A stretch of DNA of 22,904 nucleotides from Candidatus Hermodarchaeota archaeon (lineage in GTDB: Archaea > Asgardarchaeota > Lokiarchaeia > Sigyniarchaeales > SOKP01): contig JBHLLO010000045.1 of NCBI GenBank assembly GCA_048885535.1, positions 1 to 22,904 on the forward strand. Reading direction: 5' to 3'. The notes beneath the pieces are model-generated. The model was not told the origin of the DNA. It was given only the letters and a program-made list of their open reading frames with translations, and ran no database searches. The position numbers and the translations under genes are program-made. Positions 2,226-20,164 of the stretch are shown here, piece after piece (the first letter of the stretch is position 1; each line of letters starts with the position of its first letter).

Positions 2226-3209
2226 GTGAAGACTTTGGAAGGACTTCCAAACATTAATCTTATTACATCATTACTAAAAAATTATATGTATGAAGTTGAT
2301 GGCGCTGCAGCTGTTGCGTTGTGTGATAGAGACGGTTTTATAATAGCTTCTGAAAGTAAGGAGAAGGAAAACGAAGATTCAGATTCTATTATTGGAGCAA
2401 TTTCAGCATTCTTAGATATCTATATTGATCGTATAAAAAGTGAATATAAGACACAAAGCAATTTTTTCAATATCACTTCGATGCAAAACAGAAAGTTTGC
2501 ATACTGTTCGATGGGACACCATTCAATCTTAACTACAATTGCAGATCCTTCCACTTCAGATGTTGAGCTAAAGGTATATTCTGAACACATTGCAAGTAAA
2601 ATTGAACTGTTATTAGAAGGAAATGAAAATGTATCAATTGAAATCCCTGAAATTATAAGAGTTTTATCCAAAAGAAGAGAAGGGAAATTGCCGAAAGGAC
2701 AATTTACGGCTAAACTTATTCTGACGGGAGATTTTAAAGTTGGTAAAACGTCCCTAATAAAAAGATTTGTTGAAAATAGTTTTAAAGAAAGTTATATCAG
2801 CACGATTGGAGTTGAAATCTCCAAAAAGTCAATAATTATGGACGAAGAAACTAAATTGAACTTCGTCCTTTGGGATATTGGAGGTCAAATTGGACAAATA
2901 AGACCTTATAGGCAAAGGTTCTATGATGGAGCAAATGCAGCATTTATAGTCGTTGATAGAACGCGAAGCCATATAGAGAGCATAAAGTTTTGGCACAAAG
3001 ATATAAAAGAGTCAGTTCCAAATCATATTCCAATAGTATTAGTAGGCAACAAATCAGATTTACAAGATCAGATTGCAATTACAGAAGAACAATTAAAGAT
3101 TATTTCAAAGGAGTTAGATCTTCATTATATTGTTACCTCAGCTAAAACAGGGGAAAATGTAAACGAAGCATTCCTTTATATTGCTTATAGATTTATAGAG
3201 AAAGTATAA
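2226..3209 (+). CDS. Roadblock/LC7-like domain fused to a Rab-like small GTPase (eukaryotic signature protein)
   Basis: N-terminal VDGAAAVALCDRDGFIIAS resembles roadblock/MglB. The C-terminal part has all G motifs: GDFKVGKTS (G1), STIGVE (G2, Rab-like), WDIGGQ (G3), GNKSD (G4), TSAK (G5). There is no C-terminal Cys prenylation motif. Confidence 0.88.
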   Translation: MKTLEGLPNINLITSLLKNYMYEVDGAAAVALCDRDGFIIASESKEKENEDSDSIIGAISAFLDIYIDRIKSEYKTQSNFFNITSMQNRKFAYCSMGHHSILTTIADPSTSDVELKVYSEHIASKIELLLEGNENVSIEIPEIIRVLSKRREGKLPKGQFTAKLILTGDFKVGKTSLIKRFVENSFKESYISTIGVEISKKSIIMDEETKLNFVLWDIGGQIGQIRPYRQRFYDGANAAFIVVDRTRSHIESIKFWHKDIKESVPNHIPIVLVGNKSDLQDQIAITEEQLKIISKELDLHYIVTSAKTGENVNEAFLYIAYRFIEKV

Positions 3210-10868: not shown

Positions 10869-11936
10869 ATGAAATTTGGAGAATATTTAAAAGTATATAA
10901 ACAGAACATCAATGAAGCTATAAAGGAAATTTTTGAAAAAAAAATCAGTAAATTAAATAATTCATTTCTTAAAGATTATTATTCTGAATTAAAGGATTAC
11001 TTCTTAGCTGGGGGAAAAAGAATTCGCCCTTTACTTTGTATCGCATCATATAATGCATTTAAAAAACAACAAGATGATAAAATTGTTCCTGCAAGTGTTG
11101 GTATAGAGTTTCTTCATAATGCATCCCTAATACATGACGACATTATTGATAAAGATGATTATAGGAGAGGGAACCCTGCTTTTCATTTTAGATTTAAAAA
11201 TTATCATAAAGGATATAATTTCAAAAAAACAACTGATATTGATTTTGGTAATTCAATAGGTATAATAGGTGGAGATACTGCATTCTTTTTAGGTTTAGAA
11301 GCATATTTTTTTAATGATTTTGAAAATGAGATGAATAATCGAGCTATTAACTTGTATGAACAAGCTTTCATAGATATTGCTAATGGTGTATTAATCGAAA
11401 TGGATATGGTAAATAGAGAAAAAATTGAAATGTCAGATTATATTGAAATGATTTCCTTAAAAACTAGCGCGCTAATAGAAAAGTCGTTGCTAATTGGAGC
11501 AAACTATTCTAAATTAGATAAAGATCATGAAAAGGATTTATCAACTTATGGAATAAATTTAGGTATTGTATTTCAGATAATTGATGATATTTTAGGGACA
11601 TTTGGAGATGAAAAAGTTACTGGAAAACCTACTGATGGAGATATTAGAGAAGGAAAAAAAACTTGCTTATTAATTGAAGCTTTAAATACCTTAGACTCTA
11701 AGAAGAAGAAAAAACTTGAATCTATTTTAAATAAAGTAGAAATTAATGATAATGATGTGGAAACTGTAAGGAATTTATTCCTTGAAGCTGATGTGGTTAA
11801 TTCTAGCAAAAAATTAGCAGAAAAATATTATCAAAAAGCTAAACTGGCTCTAGAAAATTTAAAAGATTGTATTAATCCTCCAGAATTTGAACTATTTGAG
11901 GATCTCTTAAATTTTGTTATGAATAGAACATATTAA
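10869..11936 (+). CDS. Trans-isoprenyl diphosphate synthase (GGPP synthase-like; product chain length uncertain)
   Basis: GGKRIRP, first Asp-rich motif HDDIIDKDDYRRG, GD, KT, second motif FQIIDDILG, GKPTDGDIREGKKT. It is adjacent to the mevalonate genes. Confidence 0.92.
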   Translation: MKFGEYLKVYKQNINEAIKEIFEKKISKLNNSFLKDYYSELKDYFLAGGKRIRPLLCIASYNAFKKQQDDKIVPASVGIEFLHNASLIHDDIIDKDDYRRGNPAFHFRFKNYHKGYNFKKTTDIDFGNSIGIIGGDTAFFLGLEAYFFNDFENEMNNRAINLYEQAFIDIANGVLIEMDMVNREKIEMSDYIEMISLKTSALIEKSLLIGANYSKLDKDHEKDLSTYGINLGIVFQIIDDILGTFGDEKVTGKPTDGDIREGKKTCLLIEALNTLDSKKKKKLESILNKVEINDNDVETVRNLFLEADVVNSSKKLAEKYYQKAKLALENLKDCINPPEFELFEDLLNFVMNRTY

Positions 11937-12221: not shown

Positions 12222-14114
12222 TCAAATTTGATGCGCCCATTGATTTAAATCCCCAAGTAAAACAATTTTATCCTTATTATTTTTAAGGCTTTCTATATTG
12301 TTTAAATTTAATAACCACATACAAGATTTTAATTCATGTTTTAAAGTCCTTATTTCCTTAATTGTATTAATTGTTGTATTGTTATTGTAATCCTCCCAAG
12401 CTGAAACAAGAAATTTATAAGCGAAACCTCCAATATCGGCTCCTAATATAATACTTTTTGCAATATCTAAACCATCTTTTAATCCTCCAGTAGCTATTAA
12501 TAATTTGCTTGTAACCGCTCTCGCATGTAATATACTAATGGGAGTTGGAATACCCCATTCTCTAAAAGTATCAGCGATTTTTCTAGTAAATACTTCATAA
12601 TCAGAATCATCTCTAAAAGCCTCAATTGCTGCAAAACTTGTACCCCCAGCTCCTCCTACATCGAAACCGTTAAATCCTAAAAGATCAAGTTTTAAAGCTA
12701 AATCTTTATCAAAACCAGTTCCTACTTCCTTTGCGATTAAAGGAATTTTTGCAACTTTTTTTATTTTCAAAAAATTCTCCTGAAAATTATGATATGAAAG
12801 GTCACCGTTTCGTTGAACAAGTTCATGTAAGGCATTAAAATGAATAGCCATTGCATCAGCATTGATCATATCTACGCATTTCTCAAATTCACTTTGTTTG
12901 AAATCTGGATCACTAATTTGTCCTATACCAATATTTCCAATAATAGGGATATTTGGAGCTACCTCTCGAACAATCTCAAATGAATCTATCGTAGATTGAT
13001 TTTCTAAGGCTATACGTTGACTACCTACACTCATAATAATTTTTTCTGATTCAGCAGCTAAAGCTAAAATTTTATTTAATGCTTTGGAAATGGGATGTCC
13101 TCCTGTTATTGCCGCTATACAAATAGGCGCAGAAATAGATTTGTTATAAAATCGAGTAGATAAATCAATATCATTAAAATCAATTTCAGGGAGAGGATGA
13201 TGTACAAATTTTATATCTTCAAAATAATTTTTTGAATGCTGAACGTTATATCTGAGCGGTATTTTTAAATGTTCTATTTTTCGAGAAAAAATCTCTTTTT
13301 GAATTGGAGTAGTTAAATCTGGTTTAATATTGGTAGATGTAATCTTTTGATTTTGTAACGCCTTTAGTATATAACTGTCTTTCAATCCGTTAATTAATTG
13401 GACAGGTATGTTCATTTCACTTATCTTTTTTATAATTTCAAGTTTTCCCTTAATCCCTCCGGTAACATCTATTTTTTCATCAAGTTTGGCTAGCTTTAAG
13501 TTATCTATTTCGCTAGTAGCTATTTCTGTAGCTAATTCTGTATGATCATTTTTTCTAATATATACTCCATCTTTCTCGATTGCAAAAATGACTTTAATAA
13601 TATTCTTTTGAAATCTCTTGCATAACTCTAAAATAATTTGATCACCTGAAAGTATTGAAAAAGAGTTATCTTTTGTAAAAAGAATATCCCCATAAAGTAT
13701 AGGAAGTATATCAAGATTTAACATTGAGTTGATAGGTTCAACTGATTTTAATAAAAGGGTATTCGAGTCCTGAATAAAAATAGTTGATGGTTGTACTGAA
13801 ATAGCAGGAAAATTTTTTTCAATAAATCGATTAATAATAAAAGAGTTAAGTTCATTCATCACTTTATGTGTTTTTGAAAGACCTGTTAATTGATCTCTTA
13901 TTAATGGATTGAAACCTTTAGATATTTGATATTCTTTTGCCATTGGATGACCAAATGATCCACCACCGTGAATAAGAATTAATTTTTGATTACTTTTTAT
14001 AATTTGGTCAATAGTATTATCAATGACATCTTCTCTTAAAGAGAATGGATCATCTTTGTCAGTAAGTAAACTACCACCTAATTTTAATAAATAAATTTTA
14101 TCATTTTTAAGCAA
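12222..14114 (-). CDS. ipk-fni: Bifunctional isopentenyl phosphate kinase / type 2 (FMN-dependent) isopentenyl diphosphate isomerase fusion
   Basis: The N-terminal half is amino-acid-kinase-fold IPK (KLGGSLLTDK, HGGGSFGH, SGD, DVTGGIKGK). The C-terminal half is IDI-2 (RKIEH, AITGG, VGSQR, HFNALHE, KEVG, GAGGTSF, TGG...DIAK). One continuous ORF with a TTG start. Confidence 0.92.
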   Translation of the reverse strand: MLKNDKIYLLKLGGSLLTDKDDPFSLREDVIDNTIDQIIKSNQKLILIHGGGSFGHPMAKEYQISKGFNPLIRDQLTGLSKTHKVMNELNSFIINRFIEKNFPAISVQPSTIFIQDSNTLLLKSVEPINSMLNLDILPILYGDILFTKDNSFSILSGDQIILELCKRFQKNIIKVIFAIEKDGVYIRKNDHTELATEIATSEIDNLKLAKLDEKIDVTGGIKGKLEIIKKISEMNIPVQLINGLKDSYILKALQNQKITSTNIKPDLTTPIQKEIFSRKIEHLKIPLRYNVQHSKNYFEDIKFVHHPLPEIDFNDIDLSTRFYNKSISAPICIAAITGGHPISKALNKILALAAESEKIIMSVGSQRIALENQSTIDSFEIVREVAPNIPIIGNIGIGQISDPDFKQSEFEKCVDMINADAMAIHFNALHELVQRNGDLSYHNFQENFLKIKKVAKIPLIAKEVGTGFDKDLALKLDLLGFNGFDVGGAGGTSFAAIEAFRDDSDYEVFTRKIADTFREWGIPTPISILHARAVTSKLLIATGGLKDGLDIAKSIILGADIGGFAYKFLVSAWEDYNNNTTINTIKEIRTLKHELKSCMWLLNLNNIESLKNNKDKIVLLGDLNQWAHQI

Positions 14115-14144
14115 ATTTAAAACCCTTTTAAAAATACATTTTTT

Positions 14145-15111
14145 TTAACCTATAGTTGTTTTCCATGTTGAAAATCCTTGGTTTTCAATTGCATTAGAGA
14201 TTTTCATCTGTGAATCTAGATCTGAAGTTAAGGCTATTACTAGTCCCCCCCGACCTGTTCCGGTCACTTTTGCTCCTAGTGCTCCATTATTTCTGGCAAT
14301 CTCTACAATTTTATCATTAATTTCACCTGATACAGTTAACATTTGTAAAAGAGTATGGTTTTGATTCATCAGTTTTCCAACTTTGTTCTTTTTTCCTTTA
14401 AGTAATGCTTTCTTTGCATTCATCGCAATTTTTTCATATTGTTTAAATATGGATTTGAACTTATCTTGATTTTTTTCTTTTAATCTTCGAACATCCGAAA
14501 CCACTTCAGCTGTAGAAGCTGTTATACCTGTATCAGCAATAACTAAGTTCATCTTTTCTGCAGATGTTAAACGATCAATTACATTTTTCCCTCCGTTTAA
14601 ATTCTTGACAAACCAGATTAATCCTCCATATGTAGATGCGGTATTATCAATACCAGAGGGTGTACCATGATATGCCATTTCTCCAGCATAGGCGGCATCA
14701 TTAATCTTTTCATCATTTAAGTTTAGATTAAACTCCTCATTAAGCGCACGAGCAAGGGAAGTGCATTGCGCGGCAGAAGCCCCTACTCCACTTGCGGCGA
14801 CTAAATCTCCACTAAAAGTAAGTTCAAGTCTATTATTAAGCGTATCTATATTTAAATATTCTATAACGTTTTTAATTGCTTGTTGTGCTTCATTAAACTT
14901 TGCATCTTTATAACCAGAAGTTGCTATCCTTTGATCGTTGACTATCCATCCTTTACCATCAACAACTTTAACAGTAGTAATTGTTTTAGAGCCTAAAGCG
15001 GAGGCGATAGCTGGGAGACCATAAACCACAAAATGGTAGCGCTTACCCCTGAAGTGGGAGATAAAATTCGCCAAATAGAATGGTTTTCCCATAACCTTTT
15101 CCAGTTCCCAT
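14145..15111 (-). CDS. mvk: Mevalonate kinase, complement(join(14145..15035,15067..15111)), 311 aa after removal of a 31-nt intron
   Basis: ATG 15111 is preceded by AAGGTGA. Exon 1 MGTGKGYGKTILFGE joined to exon 2 HFVVYGLPAIA gives GHMP motif 1 (GKxILFGEHxVVYG). Also present are SGVGASAA, HGTPSGID and GAKVTGTGRGG. The track's 15092 start gives a non-homologous N-terminus. Confidence 0.92.
15036..15066 (-). other. Putative 31-nt BHB (tRNA-type) intron in the mvk mRNA
   Basis: Minus strand TTTTATCTCCCACTTCAGGGGTAAGCGCTAC shifts the frame and contains a TAA in the exon-1 frame. Central helix GGCG(15072-15069)/CGCT(15041-15038), bulges AAT and ACC, 8-bp inner helix TTTATCTC/GGGGTAAG (with G-U pairs). 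Cutting after the 2nd bulge nucleotide gives GGC GAA|CAT TTT (GEHF). Confidence 0.88.
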
Positions 15112-15184
15112 AAATTTCACCTTATTTATCATAAAATTGTGTTATTTTCAAATATTAATTATTTTTTAAAATTTTGTAAAGATT

Positions 15185-15577
15185 TTAGTCTAAAATCTCA
15201 ACTAATCCTTCAGAACCATTAACAACAACATTATCATTATTTTTTATTTTGGTTATATCAATCATATCGATGCAAGGAATTTCGCTTATAATGCAACCCA
15301 CAGCAATAATAGTATCAATATTCTTGTTGATTATTGCTAAAGGAGCAGTATTATTTTTTTTCATTCGATACATTGTATAGGAACCTACAGTCGATCCTTT
15401 CCCAGTAGGAAATACTAAAATTTTCCCTGTTATAATTTGACCTTCTAGTTCATGACCCACTTCTACAACTTTTCCAGAATCGGGATCAACCCCGCCATAA
15501 AATGAAATTCCTTCACTTGTCACAATTGCTTTTCCCGATACGATACCTTTATATATTTTTCTTCCCTCTAATTTCAT
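15185..15577 (-). CDS. Phosphomevalonate dehydratase small subunit (aconitase X swivel domain, DUF126)
   Basis: ISFYGGVDPDSG, GKILVFPTGKGSTVGS and AVGCIISEIP. The start is moved to ATG 15577 (MKLEGRK), which overlaps the large-subunit stop as ATGA. Confidence 0.88.
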   Translation of the reverse strand: MKLEGRKIYKGIVSGKAIVTSEGISFYGGVDPDSGKVVEVGHELEGQIITGKILVFPTGKGSTVGSYTMYRMKKNNTAPLAIINKNIDTIIAVGCIISEIPCIDMIDITKIKNNDNVVVNGSEGLVEILD

Positions 15578-16767
15578 TTTAAAGCCTCCGCTACACACTC
15601 CTCAATTGTGCCAATTCTTACTTTAAATTTGTTTTTAGCTCTACCATAATAACAGGCCTTAGCAGAATCAACCATAATTCCTTTAAAACGCCCTTTGATA
15701 GGAGCAACAACACAACATGTATCTGCAGCAAATTTCGCTCCCGAACTTTCTATTACTTTCGAATATCCAGCCTTATCAGCAATGTTTTTAGTAGGTCGAG
15801 CAGTTGTTATCCAAAATTCTTTATTTACTTTCTTTCCTTCTAATAACCTTGCTATTAATGCAAGTTCATGGATTGAAGCATGAGGACACCCAATACTTAT
15901 GAAATCTATTTCAAGATCTTCATCAATAAGTTCCTTACGAGTCCTATCAAGATCCTCACCTGATATCTGAAAGGAAATCTCTTTCGGTTTAGGATATTTA
16001 TTATACTCGGGTGTTATTCCTTCCATATGAAACAATGCTGTTCCGCCATAAGTAGCAACTGAAGCACAAAATGCTTTGAGCTCTTCGACAGTTGCAGATG
16101 TTATACCCGCGATGTAAGGTATTTTTTGACCAACCTTTACCAATTTATCTCCAATAATTTTTCCTAACACTCCAAATTCATCAGTACCATTTATAGGTGA
16201 ATTAATATTGAATAGTACTTGACCATAACGGTTTTCGCCTATATGATAACCATAGTTTGGTGTTTTACCTGTTAAAGCAGCAGCCAAAGCACTTGGTCCA
16301 CCCTCACGATTCGTCCTAGCCCCTATAACTGAATTAGCATAACAAACAGCGCTACTTTCGGCCCATGCTATATGTTGTCCATAATGGGGAGTATTTCCAA
16401 TTAGATAAGGAGTACAAGAACATGTTGTGATAATTCCCATTTTAGCAAATGCGTCTATAGCACGATTTTGATTCTTAGCAAAATCCTCATCTATTCCTAA
16501 TGTTTCCCAATTTTCTATATCCATGCCCGCAGGATTTAAAGTTGTTAAAACTTTGACTTTCCCATCCTCAGCCATTTCATTGAGAAATTCTAATCCTGCT
16601 TCACCTAAATTGTCGTAGGAAACTCCAGCTATCTGAACACTATACACATCAATCATGTTTTCAGCATTAAAAATTTCTCCTAAGATTGTTAGTATTTCCA
16701 TAGATTTTTGAGCTGCTCTGCCGTAATTTCCATCCAACATGTCTTTTTCTTCAGGTTCCAAAAGCAT
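15574..16767 (-). CDS. Phosphomevalonate dehydratase large subunit (aconitase X catalytic domain, DUF521)
   Basis: AGVSY, TTLNPAG, TCSCTPY, AWAESSAV..ANSVIGARTNREGGP, IGCPHAS and DTCCVVAP. The likely start is ATG 16767 after a GTGA element; the track uses GTG 16776. Confidence 0.88.
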   Translation of the reverse strand: MLLEPEEKDMLDGNYGRAAQKSMEILTILGEIFNAENMIDVYSVQIAGVSYDNLGEAGLEFLNEMAEDGKVKVLTTLNPAGMDIENWETLGIDEDFAKNQNRAIDAFAKMGIITTCSCTPYLIGNTPHYGQHIAWAESSAVCYANSVIGARTNREGGPSALAAALTGKTPNYGYHIGENRYGQVLFNINSPINGTDEFGVLGKIIGDKLVKVGQKIPYIAGITSATVEELKAFCASVATYGGTALFHMEGITPEYNKYPKPKEISFQISGEDLDRTRKELIDEDLEIDFISIGCPHASIHELALIARLLEGKKVNKEFWITTARPTKNIADKAGYSKVIESSGAKFAADTCCVVAPIKGRFKGIMVDSAKACYYGRAKNKFKVRIGTIEECVAEALK

Positions 16768-16776
16768 TTTTATCAC

Positions 16777-18096
16777 TTAAACCGAATTAAAATATTTTTT
16801 TAAATTAACCTTAGGAAAGTATGCTTTATTGAAATCTTTCCCTTTAGTTAGTAATGGTTTAGTTAAGTCAAATCCAATTTTAGTTGTTAATTTTGTTCCA
16901 GGTTCAGCACTAGGGTCTAAACTACTTCCTGGTTCTTTATCTTTAATTATCATCCCTCTGTCTCCTTGAAAGCGAGTTGCCATTGCCCATTCTACTGATA
17001 ATGGATCATAAATATCAATATCTTCATCAACTACAAATACATGTTTACAACTACTGTGACCTGCAAAAGCACCTTGAATTGCCTTTTTACCATCATCTTC
17101 CGATTGTTTATTAATTTTCACAATTGCATGAAGCCATGAACATCCTCCTGGATTTATGTTTACATCCAAACATTTTACTCCTATATCATTTACCTTATTA
17201 AAAATAGTAGGCTCACGAGGCATTCCCATTAAAACCTTATGTTCTAATGCACCTGGCAATAATGCTTGCCAAATTGCATCTTTTCTATGGGTTATTTTCT
17301 TAACTTCAAAAATAGGTTCTTCTCTAACTACATCATATGTTTCTGTTAGGTCTACAAACGGTCCTTCACTGTGTTTCTCCTCCAAGTAGACTCTTCCTTC
17401 TAAAATGAATTCTGCTTCTGCAGGAACTAGCAAATCAACAGTTTTTGCCTTAACAACTTCAATTGGCTCTAAAGCGTTTGCAATTGTTAATTCATCAACA
17501 CCAAGGTCAACAGAAGTAGCTCCAGCAATGAGTATATTAGGAGGATTCCCGATACAAAATGCAACGTCTAATTCACCGTTCTTTTCTAAAAATTTATCAA
17601 AGTGTCGTCCCTTCACAACTCTAGTTGCAAATTTTTCCTTAGAAAACTGCATTGCTCTATGAAAATCCAAGTTTTGTCCATAGTCAGGATCTCTAGTAAC
17701 CACTACAGCTGAACTTATATAATTTCCTCCATCATTTTCACAGTGGAATAAAATTGGAATTTTATCCAAATCTACGCTCGATTCAACTATTTCTTGACAT
17801 GGAGCCGCTGAGATAACCTTAGGCTCTTTACTATTTAAAATCGCTTTGGAAAGCTTAGGTATTAATTCCGCAGGAGTGATATCAAAATATGAGGCAATTG
17901 AATTTTTAGTACAAAACATATTACCAACTACTCGGAAATTAGAATGCTTCACATGGTTAAAAAGTATAGGTGTTGGTTCTAATACTTTTAAAATACCTGA
18001 AATTTCTAACTTCTTTGAGACTTCTGTATCAACCTTCTTAAGAATACCCTTCTCATCAATTTTATTCAAATAGTCTCTAAATCCCACATTTGACAC
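16777..18096 (-). CDS. UbiD-family decarboxylase, probable anhydromevalonate phosphate decarboxylase
   Basis: DGGNYISS, FHR, VPAEAEFILEG, EGPF, VVDEDIDI...VEWAMATRFQ, GSSLDPS. It lies in an operon with the dehydratase subunits and HMGR. Confidence 0.88.
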   Translation of the reverse strand: MSNVGFRDYLNKIDEKGILKKVDTEVSKKLEISGILKVLEPTPILFNHVKHSNFRVVGNMFCTKNSIASYFDITPAELIPKLSKAILNSKEPKVISAAPCQEIVESSVDLDKIPILFHCENDGGNYISSAVVVTRDPDYGQNLDFHRAMQFSKEKFATRVVKGRHFDKFLEKNGELDVAFCIGNPPNILIAGATSVDLGVDELTIANALEPIEVVKAKTVDLLVPAEAEFILEGRVYLEEKHSEGPFVDLTETYDVVREEPIFEVKKITHRKDAIWQALLPGALEHKVLMGMPREPTIFNKVNDIGVKCLDVNINPGGCSWLHAIVKINKQSEDDGKKAIQGAFAGHSSCKHVFVVDEDIDIYDPLSVEWAMATRFQGDRGMIIKDKEPGSSLDPSAEPGTKLTTKIGFDLTKPLLTKGKDFNKAYFPKVNLKKYFNSV

Positions 18097-18169
18097 CTTT
18101 TAATAAATCTTTCAATAATAAAAAATAAATGAAGTAACTAAAGGATTTTATGAACCACTTTTTAAAAAA

Positions 18170-19450
18170 CTAAAGGTTTTTTTGGCTCATTATATCATTC
18201 AATATTTTTTTCGCGTAATCAACCCTAATTTTTTTATCTTTAATTAATTTTTGTGCTACTTGCTCCAAAAGATGATCTGGTACTCCAGCTAGCTTAGCAA
18301 TGTTTCGAGAGTGAAGTGCCATGTGTCCCTTCTGAATACCTTCTGTTGCTAGAGCTCTTAAAGCGGCTACATTTTGAGCTAATCCTACCGCAGCAGCTAC
18401 TTGACATAATTCTTCAGCACTTTTTATCCCTAAAATCTTTAGATTTAACTGTGCCATAGGATGAATTTTAGTCATTCCACCTATAATTCCCAATGCTAAA
18501 GGTATTTCAATCTCCCCAATTAAATTTCCATTTGAATCTACATCAAACATTGTTAAAGGAGTATATTTTCCTTTTAGTGAAGCATAAGCATGAGCTCCAG
18601 ATTCAATAGCTCGTGTATCATTTCCAGTTGCTAAGGTTAGGGCAGCTATTCCATTCATAATTCCCTTATTATGGGTTGTGGCACGATAAGGATCAGCAAG
18701 AGCAAATTCGTATGCGTTTAATATTCCTTCAACAACCTTTTCTCCACCTAGTAAGTCCTTATCAAAGGTAGCTTTACATTTTGCTATTCTATGAGTAGCT
18801 AAATTTGAAACTATTCGTAAATAAATCAAACCGCCACATAATTCCTCAATGTAAGGTGAAATAGCTTCCGCCATAGTATTAACAATATTTGCACCCATTG
18901 CATCCAAAACATTAACCAATAAATGCATGATTAACATTTCACCTTTCTTGGTTTTGATTTCTCTAAGTTCAAAATCATATGCCCCTCCGCCAAGATTTAC
19001 TAAAAATGGATCTTGATCATTAGCAATTCTTAGCAAATCCAATTTATTTTCTATTAATATATTTCTAGCACTCTCAATATCTTCAACATTTGTTATTTGA
19101 ATTTGAGAAATCATAAATGAGTCTACTTTTTCTGAAAAGAAACCACCATGCTTTCGAGCTATTCTTGCTGCATTTGACGCAGCAGCAACCACAGAAGGTT
19201 CTTCTATTACCATAGGAATTAAATAATCTTTATTATTTATTTTAAAATTACAAGCAATACCAATCGGTAATTGATAAGAACCTACTACATTTTCAATTAA
19301 TGTATCAATTTGAGTCTCCTTTAGATATCCTAAATTTTTTAATAGTTTGATATCTTCATCATTAAGATGAACAAGTTCAGAGAGTATTTTCTGTCGTTCT
19401 TTTAGCGATAATTTATAAAATCCTGGGAGATCTGAATGAAATTCACTCAT
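18170..19450 (-). CDS. mvaA: HMG-CoA reductase, class II (bacterial-type)
   Basis: IENVVG, PMVIEEPSVVAAAS, DAMGAN, SNL, RATTHNKGIMNG, GNDTRAIE and GIQKGHMALH. Confidence 0.93.
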   Translation of the reverse strand: MSEFHSDLPGFYKLSLKERQKILSELVHLNDEDIKLLKNLGYLKETQIDTLIENVVGSYQLPIGIACNFKINNKDYLIPMVIEEPSVVAAASNAARIARKHGGFFSEKVDSFMISQIQITNVEDIESARNILIENKLDLLRIANDQDPFLVNLGGGAYDFELREIKTKKGEMLIMHLLVNVLDAMGANIVNTMAEAISPYIEELCGGLIYLRIVSNLATHRIAKCKATFDKDLLGGEKVVEGILNAYEFALADPYRATTHNKGIMNGIAALTLATGNDTRAIESGAHAYASLKGKYTPLTMFDVDSNGNLIGEIEIPLALGIIGGMTKIHPMAQLNLKILGIKSAEELCQVAAAVGLAQNVAALRALATEGIQKGHMALHSRNIAKLAGVPDHLLEQVAQKLIKDKKIRVDYAKKILNDIMSQKNL

Positions 19451-19600: not shown

Positions 19601-20164
19601 TTGATTCTTATAGCAATTACTGGTGCGACAGGAATCTCGATTGCTATTGAATTATTAAAGGTTTTAAGAGAACAAAAAGTCTCAACAGAGTTAATTATAT
19701 CAAAAGCAGCAGAATTAGTATTAAATAATGAAACAGAATTAAATTTATCAGAAATATATAATTTGGCTACTCAAGTGTATGATATTGACGATTTAGAAGC
19801 ACCTCCTGCGAGTGGGTCCCATAAGTTAGATGCTATGATCGTTGTACCTTGCACTATGAAGACTTTAGCATCTATTGCTCATGGATATGCTGATAACTTA
19901 ATCACTAGAGCTGCTGATGTTGCAATAAAAGAACAGAGAAAACTGGTTTTAGTAGTAAGAGAAAGCCCTTTGAGCGCAATCCACCTTGAGAATATGCTCA
20001 AACTCGCAAAACTGGGAGTAGTTATAGCACCTCCAGTTCCTTCCTATTATATCAAACCTAAAAATGTTCATCAACTAGTTAATCATATTGTAGGAAGATT
20101 ATTAGATCAACTGGATTTTGATATAGGGATAAAAAGGTGGAAAGATGAACAAATGGAAAGTTGA
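19601..20164 (+). CDS. ubiX: Flavin prenyltransferase UbiX
   Basis: IAITGATG, PASGS, VPCTMKTLASIAHG.ADNLITRAADV..KEQR.LVLVVRESPLSAIHLENM. TTG start after a GTGA element. Confidence 0.93.
   Translation: MILIAITGATGISIAIELLKVLREQKVSTELIISKAAELVLNNETELNLSEIYNLATQVYDIDDLEAPPASGSHKLDAMIVVPCTMKTLASIAHGYADNLITRAADVAIKEQRKLVLVVRESPLSAIHLENMLKLAKLGVVIAPPVPSYYIKPKNVHQLVNHIVGRLLDQLDFDIGIKRWKDEQMES

Follow-up and report, generated by a model that had tools for sequence, protein, structure and literature searches.

A probable bulge-helix-bulge intron in the mevalonate kinase coding region of an Asgard archaeon

The window considered here, i.e., the whole stretch of 22,904 nucleotides (nt) that was analysed (contig JBHLLO010000045.1, positions 1 to 22,904, of the assembly GCA_048885535.1, Candidatus Hermodarchaeota archaeon), carries on its minus strand a mevalonate kinase gene that is interrupted in its most conserved protein motif. 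The 31 nt at 15066-15036 that cause this interruption are very probably an archaeal bulge-helix-bulge (BHB) intron, located in the coding region of the only mevalonate kinase gene detected in the genome. A preliminary description of this DNA had proposed a BHB intron splitting the GE|H motif of a functional kinase, and this proposal is now supported by the presence or exact absence of the insert among relatives, the selection acting on the gene, the distribution of stop codons, the covariation of paired bases, the existence of a single kinase, and the genes for the splicing endonuclease EndA and the RtcB ligase.

Reading frame and identity of the gene

The frame of exon 1 starts with the ATG at 15111-15109, which has a ribosome-binding-like GGTGA a few bases on its 5' side, and its final codon is a GAA that finishes at 15067. 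When it is read without excision, this frame continues past GE into FYLPLQG and then meets a TAA within the insert. The excision of 15066-15036 brings CAT TTT GTG GTT (HFVVYG...) in frame, which results in 45 + 891 = 936 nt, or 311 codons and a stop. Both the unspliced stop and the 936-nt frame, which the preliminary description had reported, were reproduced on the minus strand. The boundaries of the insert are unambiguous in the window, given that a shift of a single base alters the GE|H residues.

Exon 2 alone scores 215.4 bits against the TIGR00549 mevalonate kinase equivalog (cut-off 163.05), covering profile positions 11-276, and this match begins only at position 11 because exon 1 encodes the missing start of the profile. 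For example, an intron-less relative (L012) reaches 226.8 bits over profile positions 3-276, with GKTILFGEHFVVYG unbroken, and the exon 1 motif corresponds to TIGR00549 positions 3-10 in the intron-less relatives, and also aligns to the solved mevalonate kinases. The same relative matches the solved kinase 2hfs_A, the Leishmania enzyme, with an E-value of 3.4e-71, the motif region included, and is far closer to this enzyme than to the solved archaeal mevalonate kinases 1kkh (1.2e-22) and 6mde (4.7e-29). From the family membership of the gene and the mevalonate-pathway cluster in which it lies, we infer that its product acts on mevalonate.

The preliminary description had also recommended that the genome be searched for a second intact mvk. 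None was found in a whole-genome TIGR00549 search of the 3.09-Mb, 91.6%-complete assembly, in which no second locus lies above the cut-off. Two GHMP paralogues fall below the cut-off of 163, at 83.5 and 65.6 bits (64.2 for the latter when the whole genome is searched), and one of these resembles heptose-phosphate kinase. In two other genomes of the same genus (G013 and G023, loci L024 and L025), the best kinase match is a different kinase, of the HAVVYG type, with 34-37% identity, and two kinase lineages therefore coexist in the order.

The insert among relatives

The relatives of the kinase were gathered by an alignment-based search of genome contigs. The genus comprises 42 genomes, 32 of which have this type of kinase, and the junction is readable in 31. 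An insert of 28, 30 or 31 nt is found exactly at GE|HF in 21 of these 31 genomes, the other 10 having an uninterrupted GEHF, as does every one of the outgroups. When all the loci with a readable junction are considered (n=122, a set in which some genomes are counted twice, under a G handle and as a named record), 47 have the insert and 75 do not. The distinct sequences amount to 37 junction strings, 35 intron sequences and 95 exon 2 DNAs (36 with the insert and 59 without), and the length of the insert over the 37 distinct junctions is 31 nt in 32 cases, 30 nt in four, and 28 nt in one.

As the gene is interrupted in the DNA as it stands, it might represent either a decaying pseudogene or an artefact of assembly. 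An artefact is opposed by the origin of the 47 insert-bearing loci, which come from many independent assemblies, and by the DNA contigs of four sequencing runs (from one study, possibly the source of the window), which hold the insert with no indel. Decay is opposed by the ratio of nonsynonymous to synonymous substitutions (dN/dS), which has a median of 0.121 and a maximum of 0.271 over 615 pairs of interrupted genes (36 distinct), with a dS of approximately 1.5, the median for the intron-less genes being 0.098, and also by the fact that no other gene of the genome lies above the mevalonate kinase cut-off. The preliminary description had argued against a pseudogene from the intact look of the rest of the gene and of its cluster, in which the kinase alone is interrupted. 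The probability that the gene is a pseudogene or an artefact is next to negligible.

The bulge-helix-bulge motif and the selection on its structure

All the elements of the structure outlined in the preliminary description, i.e., a GGCG/CGCU helix, the AA|U and AC|C bulges, an inner stem of 8 bp, and an outer pair of 1 bp, are present in the window as described. The bulges are formed by 15068, 15067 | 15066 and by 15037, 15036 | 15035, respectively, the inner stem joins 15065-15058 with 15049-15042 (three of the pairs being G.U) around a loop of 8 nt at 15057-15050, and the outer pair beside the 3' bulge is the single U15073-A15034. Because only 1 bp adjoins this bulge, the motif would be held together by an exon-exon clamp of 8-11 bp, which sits 6 nt (exon 1) and 11 nt (exon 2) beyond it. 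Two exon pairings of this kind had been suggested, of which UGGGA..ACCAU/AUGGU..UCCCA is part of the minimum-energy fold of the window and matches the clamp kept in the relatives; the other, AAACCA/UGGUUU, is not conserved.

The cut of the splicing endonuclease falls after the second base of the bulge, and the boundaries set by homology lie after the second base of each 3-nt bulge, where they restore GE|HF as it is found in the 75 intron-less loci. The motif itself has 19,829 hits in the genome, over approximately 6.19 million positions x 67 lengths, which corresponds to about 4.8e-5 per pair of position and length, and this chance applies to one such pair because both the position and the length were fixed beforehand by the protein homology.

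A structure that we named ourselves was counted on an alignment of the 37 sequences, with slid partners and shuffles as the controls, and this counting replaced consensus folding because indels misalign the columns of the inner stem. The bases pair in 88.6% of the cells, versus 39-45% when the partners are slid by 1-3 columns, and 16 cells have changed on both sides, with the observed value being reached in none of 500 shuffles. For example, two separate lineages (L005/L048 and L101) have GGUG/CACU as their central helix instead of GGCG/CGCU, and partners of the type CGUC or CGUU are found in three others. Among the 36 distinct sequences, the three inner pairs of the central helix hold in every one, as does the adjacent outer U-A pair, and the outermost central pair is G.U in 17 and G-C in one, the remainder being considered further on. 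The inner helix is paired in 82.5% of the cells across relatives, and the bulge bases at the first and last positions of the intron vary freely.

The structure also appears to have left its mark on the codons of the exons, in a contrast between 36 distinct intron-bearing and 33 intron-less ingroup genes in which the groups were delimited by a starred clade of the tree and not by the intron. Among the intron-bearing genes, 34 have GGC as the Gly codon and two have GGT, both with the CACU partner, whereas the intron-less genes have GGA in 16 cases, GGT in eight, GGG in five, and GGC in four. Similarly, the Phe codon ahead of this Gly is TTT in all 36 intron-bearing genes, versus 12 of the 33 intron-less ones. 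The synonymous sites of the exons are frozen in genes with the intron and in no others. The distal clamp follows the same division, with 8/8 bp in 29 of the intron-bearing genes, 7/8 in six, and 6/8 in one (the window, with a shifted pairing), and 8/8 bp in just one of the 33 intron-less genes (L086).

In the folding of short constructs, at least three of the four central pairs are found in the minimum-energy fold of 36 of the 37 sequences, and when 12 of the 37 were folded as RNAs of 82-85 nt, the clamp was formed in all 12 and the motif in seven. A conserved competing fold, in which GCGAA from the end of exon 1 pairs with UUUGU from the start of exon 2 (in the 15034-15072 region of the window; columns 26-30 with 65-69 of the alignment), buries the 5' splice site, and all of the bases of this fold are also constrained by coding.

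Possible routes across or around the insert

The stop codons of the insert limit the ways in which the protein could be obtained from an unspliced RNA. There is a stop in the exon 1 frame inside the insert in all 37 distinct junctions, and in 19 of these there is a stop in the exon 2 frame as well, which in 10 cases stands directly before the His codon. The take-off codon is the same as the landing codon in none of the 37. This layout of stops, together with the lack of a matching landing codon, closes the routes of read-through, frameshifting and hopping.

The short gap, the exon 1 frame stop found in it at every junction, and its conserved hairpin would all suit a translational bypass, with a hop of the ribosome across the 31 nt of the kind known from gene 60 of phage T4, whose gap likewise has a stop codon and a hairpin, or from the byp elements of yeast mitochondria. 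However, a bypass needs a matching landing codon, and the take-off codon here is GAA or GAG where the last codon of the insert is UAC, UAA, UAG, UAU, AAU, AAA or CAA, with no match, either identical or synonymous, in any of the 37 junctions. A hop also has no need of the conserved pairing in which the last bases of exon 1 join those at the 3' end of the insert, with 3-nt bulges exactly at the boundaries, and an exon-exon clamp that spans the gap would hinder the ribosome rather than help it. The chance of a bypass is very slight.

A programmed ribosomal frameshift could in principle restore the frame by a single shift, given that both 31 and 28 are a multiple of 3 plus one. This is countered by the four of the 37 inserts that have 30 nt, which are in frame yet have stops, by the 19 junctions in which stops in both frames inside the insert leave no window for a shift, and by the product itself, which would gain some 10 extra unconserved residues in the motif. 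A frameshift of this type has practically no likelihood.

It is also conceivable that nothing is removed, and that the kinase is produced without GK.ILFGE from exon 2 alone or, in the window, from the ATG at 15092, in which case exon 1 would be a small open reading frame (ORF) or a leader. The exon 2 frame of the window is open through the insert back to this ATG, and forms an ORF of 315 amino acids (aa) at 14145-15092 on the minus strand. Against this, the same frame is closed inside the insert in 19 of the 37 junctions, including the 10 with the stop directly before the His codon, and no conserved start follows. In addition, the amino acids of exon 1 are conserved in their own frame, with ...GKTILFGE being kept in 35 of the 36 intron-bearing genes, and the exon 1 bases outside the helices vary synonymously in these 36 relatives while the amino acids stay conserved. 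The exon 1 motif matches the solved mevalonate kinases and TIGR00549 positions 3-10 of the intron-less relatives, and the covariation of the synonymous sites of exon 1 with the insert would be left unexplained if the insert remained in the RNA. There is only a slight chance that the insert is not removed, and the removal of a BHB intron from the transcript is the reading followed below.

Two observations relate to the start of the gene. Gene callers probably report the ORF of 315 aa at 14145-15092 as the kinase. The start codon of the kinase, 45 nt before the 5' splice site, is replaced by ACG in six of the 36 intron-bearing genes (L011, L015, L016, L017, L043 and L045) and also in the intron-less L087, and by CTG in one of the 36 (L008). 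These ACG and CTG codons directly follow the TAA of the upstream gene and there is no other in-frame start, which suggests either that translation begins at a non-standard codon or that it re-initiates once the upstream gene has been read.

Splicing machinery and the proposed mechanism

The genome has two loci with the EndA domain (PF01974), in the regions C6:30393-30617 and C1:55964-56212. The first (200 aa) is most similar to the chain 3p1z_B of the A. pernix enzyme (E 3e-35), retains the Tyr, His and Lys positions as well as the loop (CSL) residues aligned with K44 and R46, and resembles the alpha catalytic subunit. The second paralogue (205 aa) is without the catalytic His, as expected for a structural subunit. 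There is also one gene for the RtcB ligase, with 560.9 bits. The loop is described as conferring a broad substrate range on EndA, for which K44 is needed (PMC3241643), and Asgard archaea as having an (alpha-beta)2 EndA with this broad-specificity loop, with relaxed BHB motifs being accepted, as stated in the same source, only by the (alpha-beta)2 and epsilon2 enzymes (PMC5829648).

Introns were called by ARAGORN in 23 of the 34 tRNA genes of this genome, and as just 34 tRNAs were found in a genome that is 91.6% complete, further interrupted tRNA genes have probably been missed. The calibration of the cut rule on these tRNA introns was non-discriminating, with an uninterrupted call for 15 of the 23 loci versus 13-17 with displaced cuts, and a looser count of the tRNA introns (17 of 23) was equally so.

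In the proposed mechanism, the GGCG at the end of exon 1 would pair in the transcript with the CGCU at the 3' end of the intron, giving a 4-bp helix with two 3-nt bulges and an inner hairpin within the intron, and the outlying exon-exon clamp, of about 8-11 bp, would keep this motif together. The EndA formed by the two paralogues, probably an (alpha-beta)2 enzyme with a broad-specificity loop, would then cut after the second base of each bulge, and RtcB would ligate ...GGC GAA to CAU UUU..., which would restore GK.ILFGE|HFVVYG and the kinase of 311 codons. The unspliced RNA would yield merely a peptide of 22 residues. The excision itself, the enzymes responsible for it, and the exact positions of the cuts are what we infer from the features of the DNA.

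Given that the motif is relaxed on its outer side, and that the role of EndA and RtcB is a predicted one, the RNA might be cut and joined by some other machinery. A group I or group II ribozyme is, however, much larger than an insert of 28-31 nt, the geometry is that recognised by EndA, and the CSL-bearing EndA alpha, the second paralogue and RtcB are all encoded in the genome. The chance that another machinery is responsible is small.

A broader and rather doubtful suggestion, which we would put forward only tentatively, is that EndA and RtcB splice a core metabolic mRNA in one lineage of Asgard archaea and that the intron works as a gate, in competition with the GCGAA/UUUGU fold, which would tie the first committed kinase of isoprenoid-lipid synthesis to the RNA-processing capacity or the growth state of the cell, as an archaeal counterpart of HAC1/XBP1. 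The kinase might then be the first of several Asgard mRNA introns.

Observations that weigh against the intron

A number of observations weigh against the interpretation of the insert as a BHB intron. The motif is relaxed, given that a single base pair adjoins the outer side of the 3' bulge, and 18 of the 36 distinct sequences have a G.A mismatch as their outermost central pair. The single-sequence fold has a z of -1.05 in the window, which is not significant, and the range across the folded sequences is a modest one, from -1.05 to -4.6. The exact geometry is the minimum-energy fold in only 23 of the 37 short constructs, and the competing GCGAA/UUUGU fold is the minimum-energy structure in five of the 12 relatives folded as longer RNAs. 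RNAalifold, run on the MAFFT alignment of the 37 sequences, missed the motif, and gave the distal clamp together with the competing fold. The open exon 2 frame that reaches the ATG at 15092 makes an unspliced N-terminal variant formally possible in the genome of the window alone. The relatives are kin, and the counts made across them overstate their independence. Finally, of the six sequencing runs listed as containing the DNA of the window, none is on record as RNA, and no spliced junction or circular intron was seen.

Probable origin and loss of the intron

A quick maximum-likelihood tree was obtained from the 95 distinct exon 2 proteins, without L020 (its junction is off the contig), L023 (121 codons only), and the nine distant kinases L024-L032. 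All of the inserts fall in one clade of 69 rows, with a support of 97, in which the first three branches are all insert-bearing and the remainder is mixed. The outgroups labelled Thor, Hod, Heimdall and Atabey, as well as the sister family, are without the insert. The fewest changes that explain this distribution on the tree are 13, of which the starred branches force four.

The probable history is a single gain of the intron near the base of a Loki-type clade of genus level, and several exact losses thereafter, as read from a gene tree only, in which the transfer of intron-less alleles would give the same pattern. GE|HF is intact after every loss, as would be left by replacement with a spliced copy. 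The intron-less L086, which has the full clamp and a Gly codon that is already GGA, is probably a case of recent exact loss.

Searches for further introns in the genome

The genome was scanned for other mRNA introns with a motif of our own and an ORF-fusion filter, using three decoys with displaced cut sites for comparison. The scan recovers the kinase intron. It returned 2218 distinct candidates versus 2184-2240 in the three decoys, 74 versus 55-59 when at least 50 codons were required on both sides, and 49 versus 40-44 paralogue alignments spanning the junction, with no usable excess in any of the three counts, and thus neither shows nor excludes a second mRNA intron. A search of the genome with an nhmmer profile of the intron found only the intron itself (E 7.7e-9), the next match having an E-value above 1.

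Gene cluster and organism

The kinase lies in a run of mevalonate-pathway genes on a single strand (Table 1), the content of which agrees with the modified mevalonate pathway of archaea as described in PMC10040528 and PMC8184944. The UbiX-like flavoprotein encoded beside this run is likely to supply the cofactor of the UbiD-family decarboxylase. When the neighbouring genes were compared in 109 related loci (232 query-locus pairs), the only break was at the IPK/IDI2 boundary, and none was intron-like. IPK and IDI2 are separate adjacent genes in 10 of the related loci (L009, L026, L029, L056, L057, L061, L072, L075, L089 and L094), where they are in different frames, 12-77 nt apart, and divided at the domain boundary. 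No match to Rfam and, with ARAGORN, no tRNA was found in the window.

Table 1. Positions in the window of the interrupted kinase gene, the elements of its predicted intron structure, and other genes.
Feature	Position	Strand	Remarks
Exon 1, mevalonate kinase	15067..15111	-	ATG + 14 codons (MGTGKGYGKTILFGE), the last two GGC GAA; N-terminal GK.ILFGE part of the kinase motif
Exon 2, mevalonate kinase	14145..15035	-	HFVVYG..., 296 codons + stop; GHMP kinase N- and C-terminal domains (Pfam PF00288, PF08544)
Bulge-helix-bulge intron (probable), 31 nt	15036..15066	-	In-frame TAA; inner hairpin, CGCU strand, bulge bases U15066, A15037, C15036
Central helix, exon-side strand GGCG	15069..15072	-	Gly codon + first Glu base; pairs with CGCU 15041-15038
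Distal exon-exon clamp, exon 1 strand	15080..15091	-	UGGGA-AA-ACCAU in the window; AAGACCAU in most relatives
Distal exon-exon clamp, exon 2 strand	15012..15022	-	AUGGU-C-UCCCA in the window; AUGGUCUU in most relatives
Mevalonate-pathway gene run	12222..19450	-	One same-strand run; the kinase is the sole interrupted gene
HMG-CoA reductase	18170-19450	-	Mevalonate cluster
UbiD-family decarboxylase	16777-18096	-	Mevalonate cluster
Aconitase-X large subunit	15574-16776	-	Mevalonate cluster
Aconitase-X small subunit	15185-15598	-	Mevalonate cluster
Isopentenyl phosphate kinase (IPK) / type-2 isopentenyl pyrophosphate isomerase (IDI2) fusion, 630 aa	12222-14114	-	Mevalonate cluster
Polyprenyl synthetase	10869-11936	+	Flanks the mevalonate cluster, opposite strand
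UbiX-like flavoprotein	19601-20164	+	Flanks the mevalonate cluster, opposite strand
Ras/Roc/Arf-like small GTPase	2226-3209	+	Window ORF; N-terminal extension of 160 aa

The organism is an Asgard archaeon of the Loki type (Promethearchaeota). Those relatives of the kinase that have names come from metagenome-assembled genomes, for the most part with the labels Promethearchaeota or Promethearchaeia (Asgard of the Loki type). Eight loci (L059, L072, L077, L085, L088, L092, L095 and L100) come from assemblies labelled Bathyarchaeota, Nitrosopumilales or "Nanopelagicaceae bacterium", and their kinases nest in the Promethearchaeota clade with 66-71% identity. It is probable that the assemblies in question are mislabelled.

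Significance and comparison with known systems

BHB introns are extremely rare in the protein-coding genes of archaea. The archaeal mRNA substrates named in the relevant text of PMC7714728 (2020) and PMC10485636 (2023) are only the crenarchaeal cbf5 and the leader of the Haloferax HVO_1309, and the second of these sources, a review, considers that more mRNA substrates probably remain to be found. A literature search of material other than subscription journals and supplementary files returned no report of a BHB intron in a mevalonate kinase or in an Asgard protein-coding gene. The kinase would be the third archaeal gene with an mRNA intron, the first in Asgard archaea, and the first in which the intron lies in the reading frame of a metabolic enzyme.

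If the kinase mRNA is spliced, the splicing of mRNA by the tRNA machinery extends to the Asgard archaea, the closest prokaryotic relatives of the eukaryotes, and an essential enzyme of lipid-precursor synthesis depends on EndA and RtcB. The 36 distinct intron-bearing and 33 intron-less genes of a single clade would in that case provide a natural series for the study of the origin of an intron, its demands on the exons, and its exact loss. There is also a consequence for annotation, given that gene callers will report the kinase as truncated or frameshifted, and the mevalonate pathway will then be taken, erroneously, for an incomplete one when it is reconstructed from these genomes.

The nearest known parallel is the intron of the cbf5 pre-mRNA of Crenarchaeota, which was reportedly described by Watanabe in 2002 and by Yoshinari in 2006. 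Like the kinase intron, it is a short intron in a coding region with a relaxed BHB motif, in hosts that have an (alpha-beta)2 EndA (Yokobori 2009, PMC2738675; PMC10485636; PMC7714728). Both introns also have a patchy distribution, for which a single gain followed by exact losses was proposed in the case of cbf5 (PMC2738675). On the other hand, cbf5 is a crenarchaeal pseudouridine synthase, whereas the gene considered here is an Asgard kinase of a lipid pathway, and the splicing of cbf5 has been shown experimentally, whereas that of the kinase is predicted. The set-apart exon clamp and the frozen synonymous sites are features of the kinase intron, on which cbf5 was not compared, and the cbf5 gene in the genome of the window is uninterrupted.

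The intron in the 5' untranslated region of HVO_1309, in Haloferax volcanii, is likewise located in an mRNA on which the splicing endonuclease of archaea acts, at BHB sites (PMC7714728), in a host described as having an enzyme of the alpha2 type (PMC10485636). It is found in an untranslated leader, and its removal is not needed for the frame, whereas the kinase intron interrupts the coding frame. The BHB introns of Asgard tRNAs (bioRxiv 10.64898/2026.10.13.758758; PMC5829648), which abound in Asgard genomes, share the motif and the presumed machinery with the kinase intron, the substrate of which is an mRNA. The tRNA genes of some Asgard archaea are described as heavily interrupted (bioRxiv 10.64898/2026.10.13.758758), which agrees with the 23 of 34 found here, and a term search of the text of this preprint found none of "mRNA", "cbf5" or "mevalonate".

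Finally, the splicing of HAC1 and XBP1 in eukaryotes is likewise non-spliceosomal and likewise removes a short intron from a coding mRNA through the action of a protein endonuclease followed by that of a tRNA ligase, and RtcB acts in the splicing of XBP1 (PMC8718801). The endonuclease of HAC1/XBP1 splicing is IRE1, whereas here it would be EndA, no stress control being known for the kinase intron, and the resemblance between the two systems is one of mechanism and not of descent.

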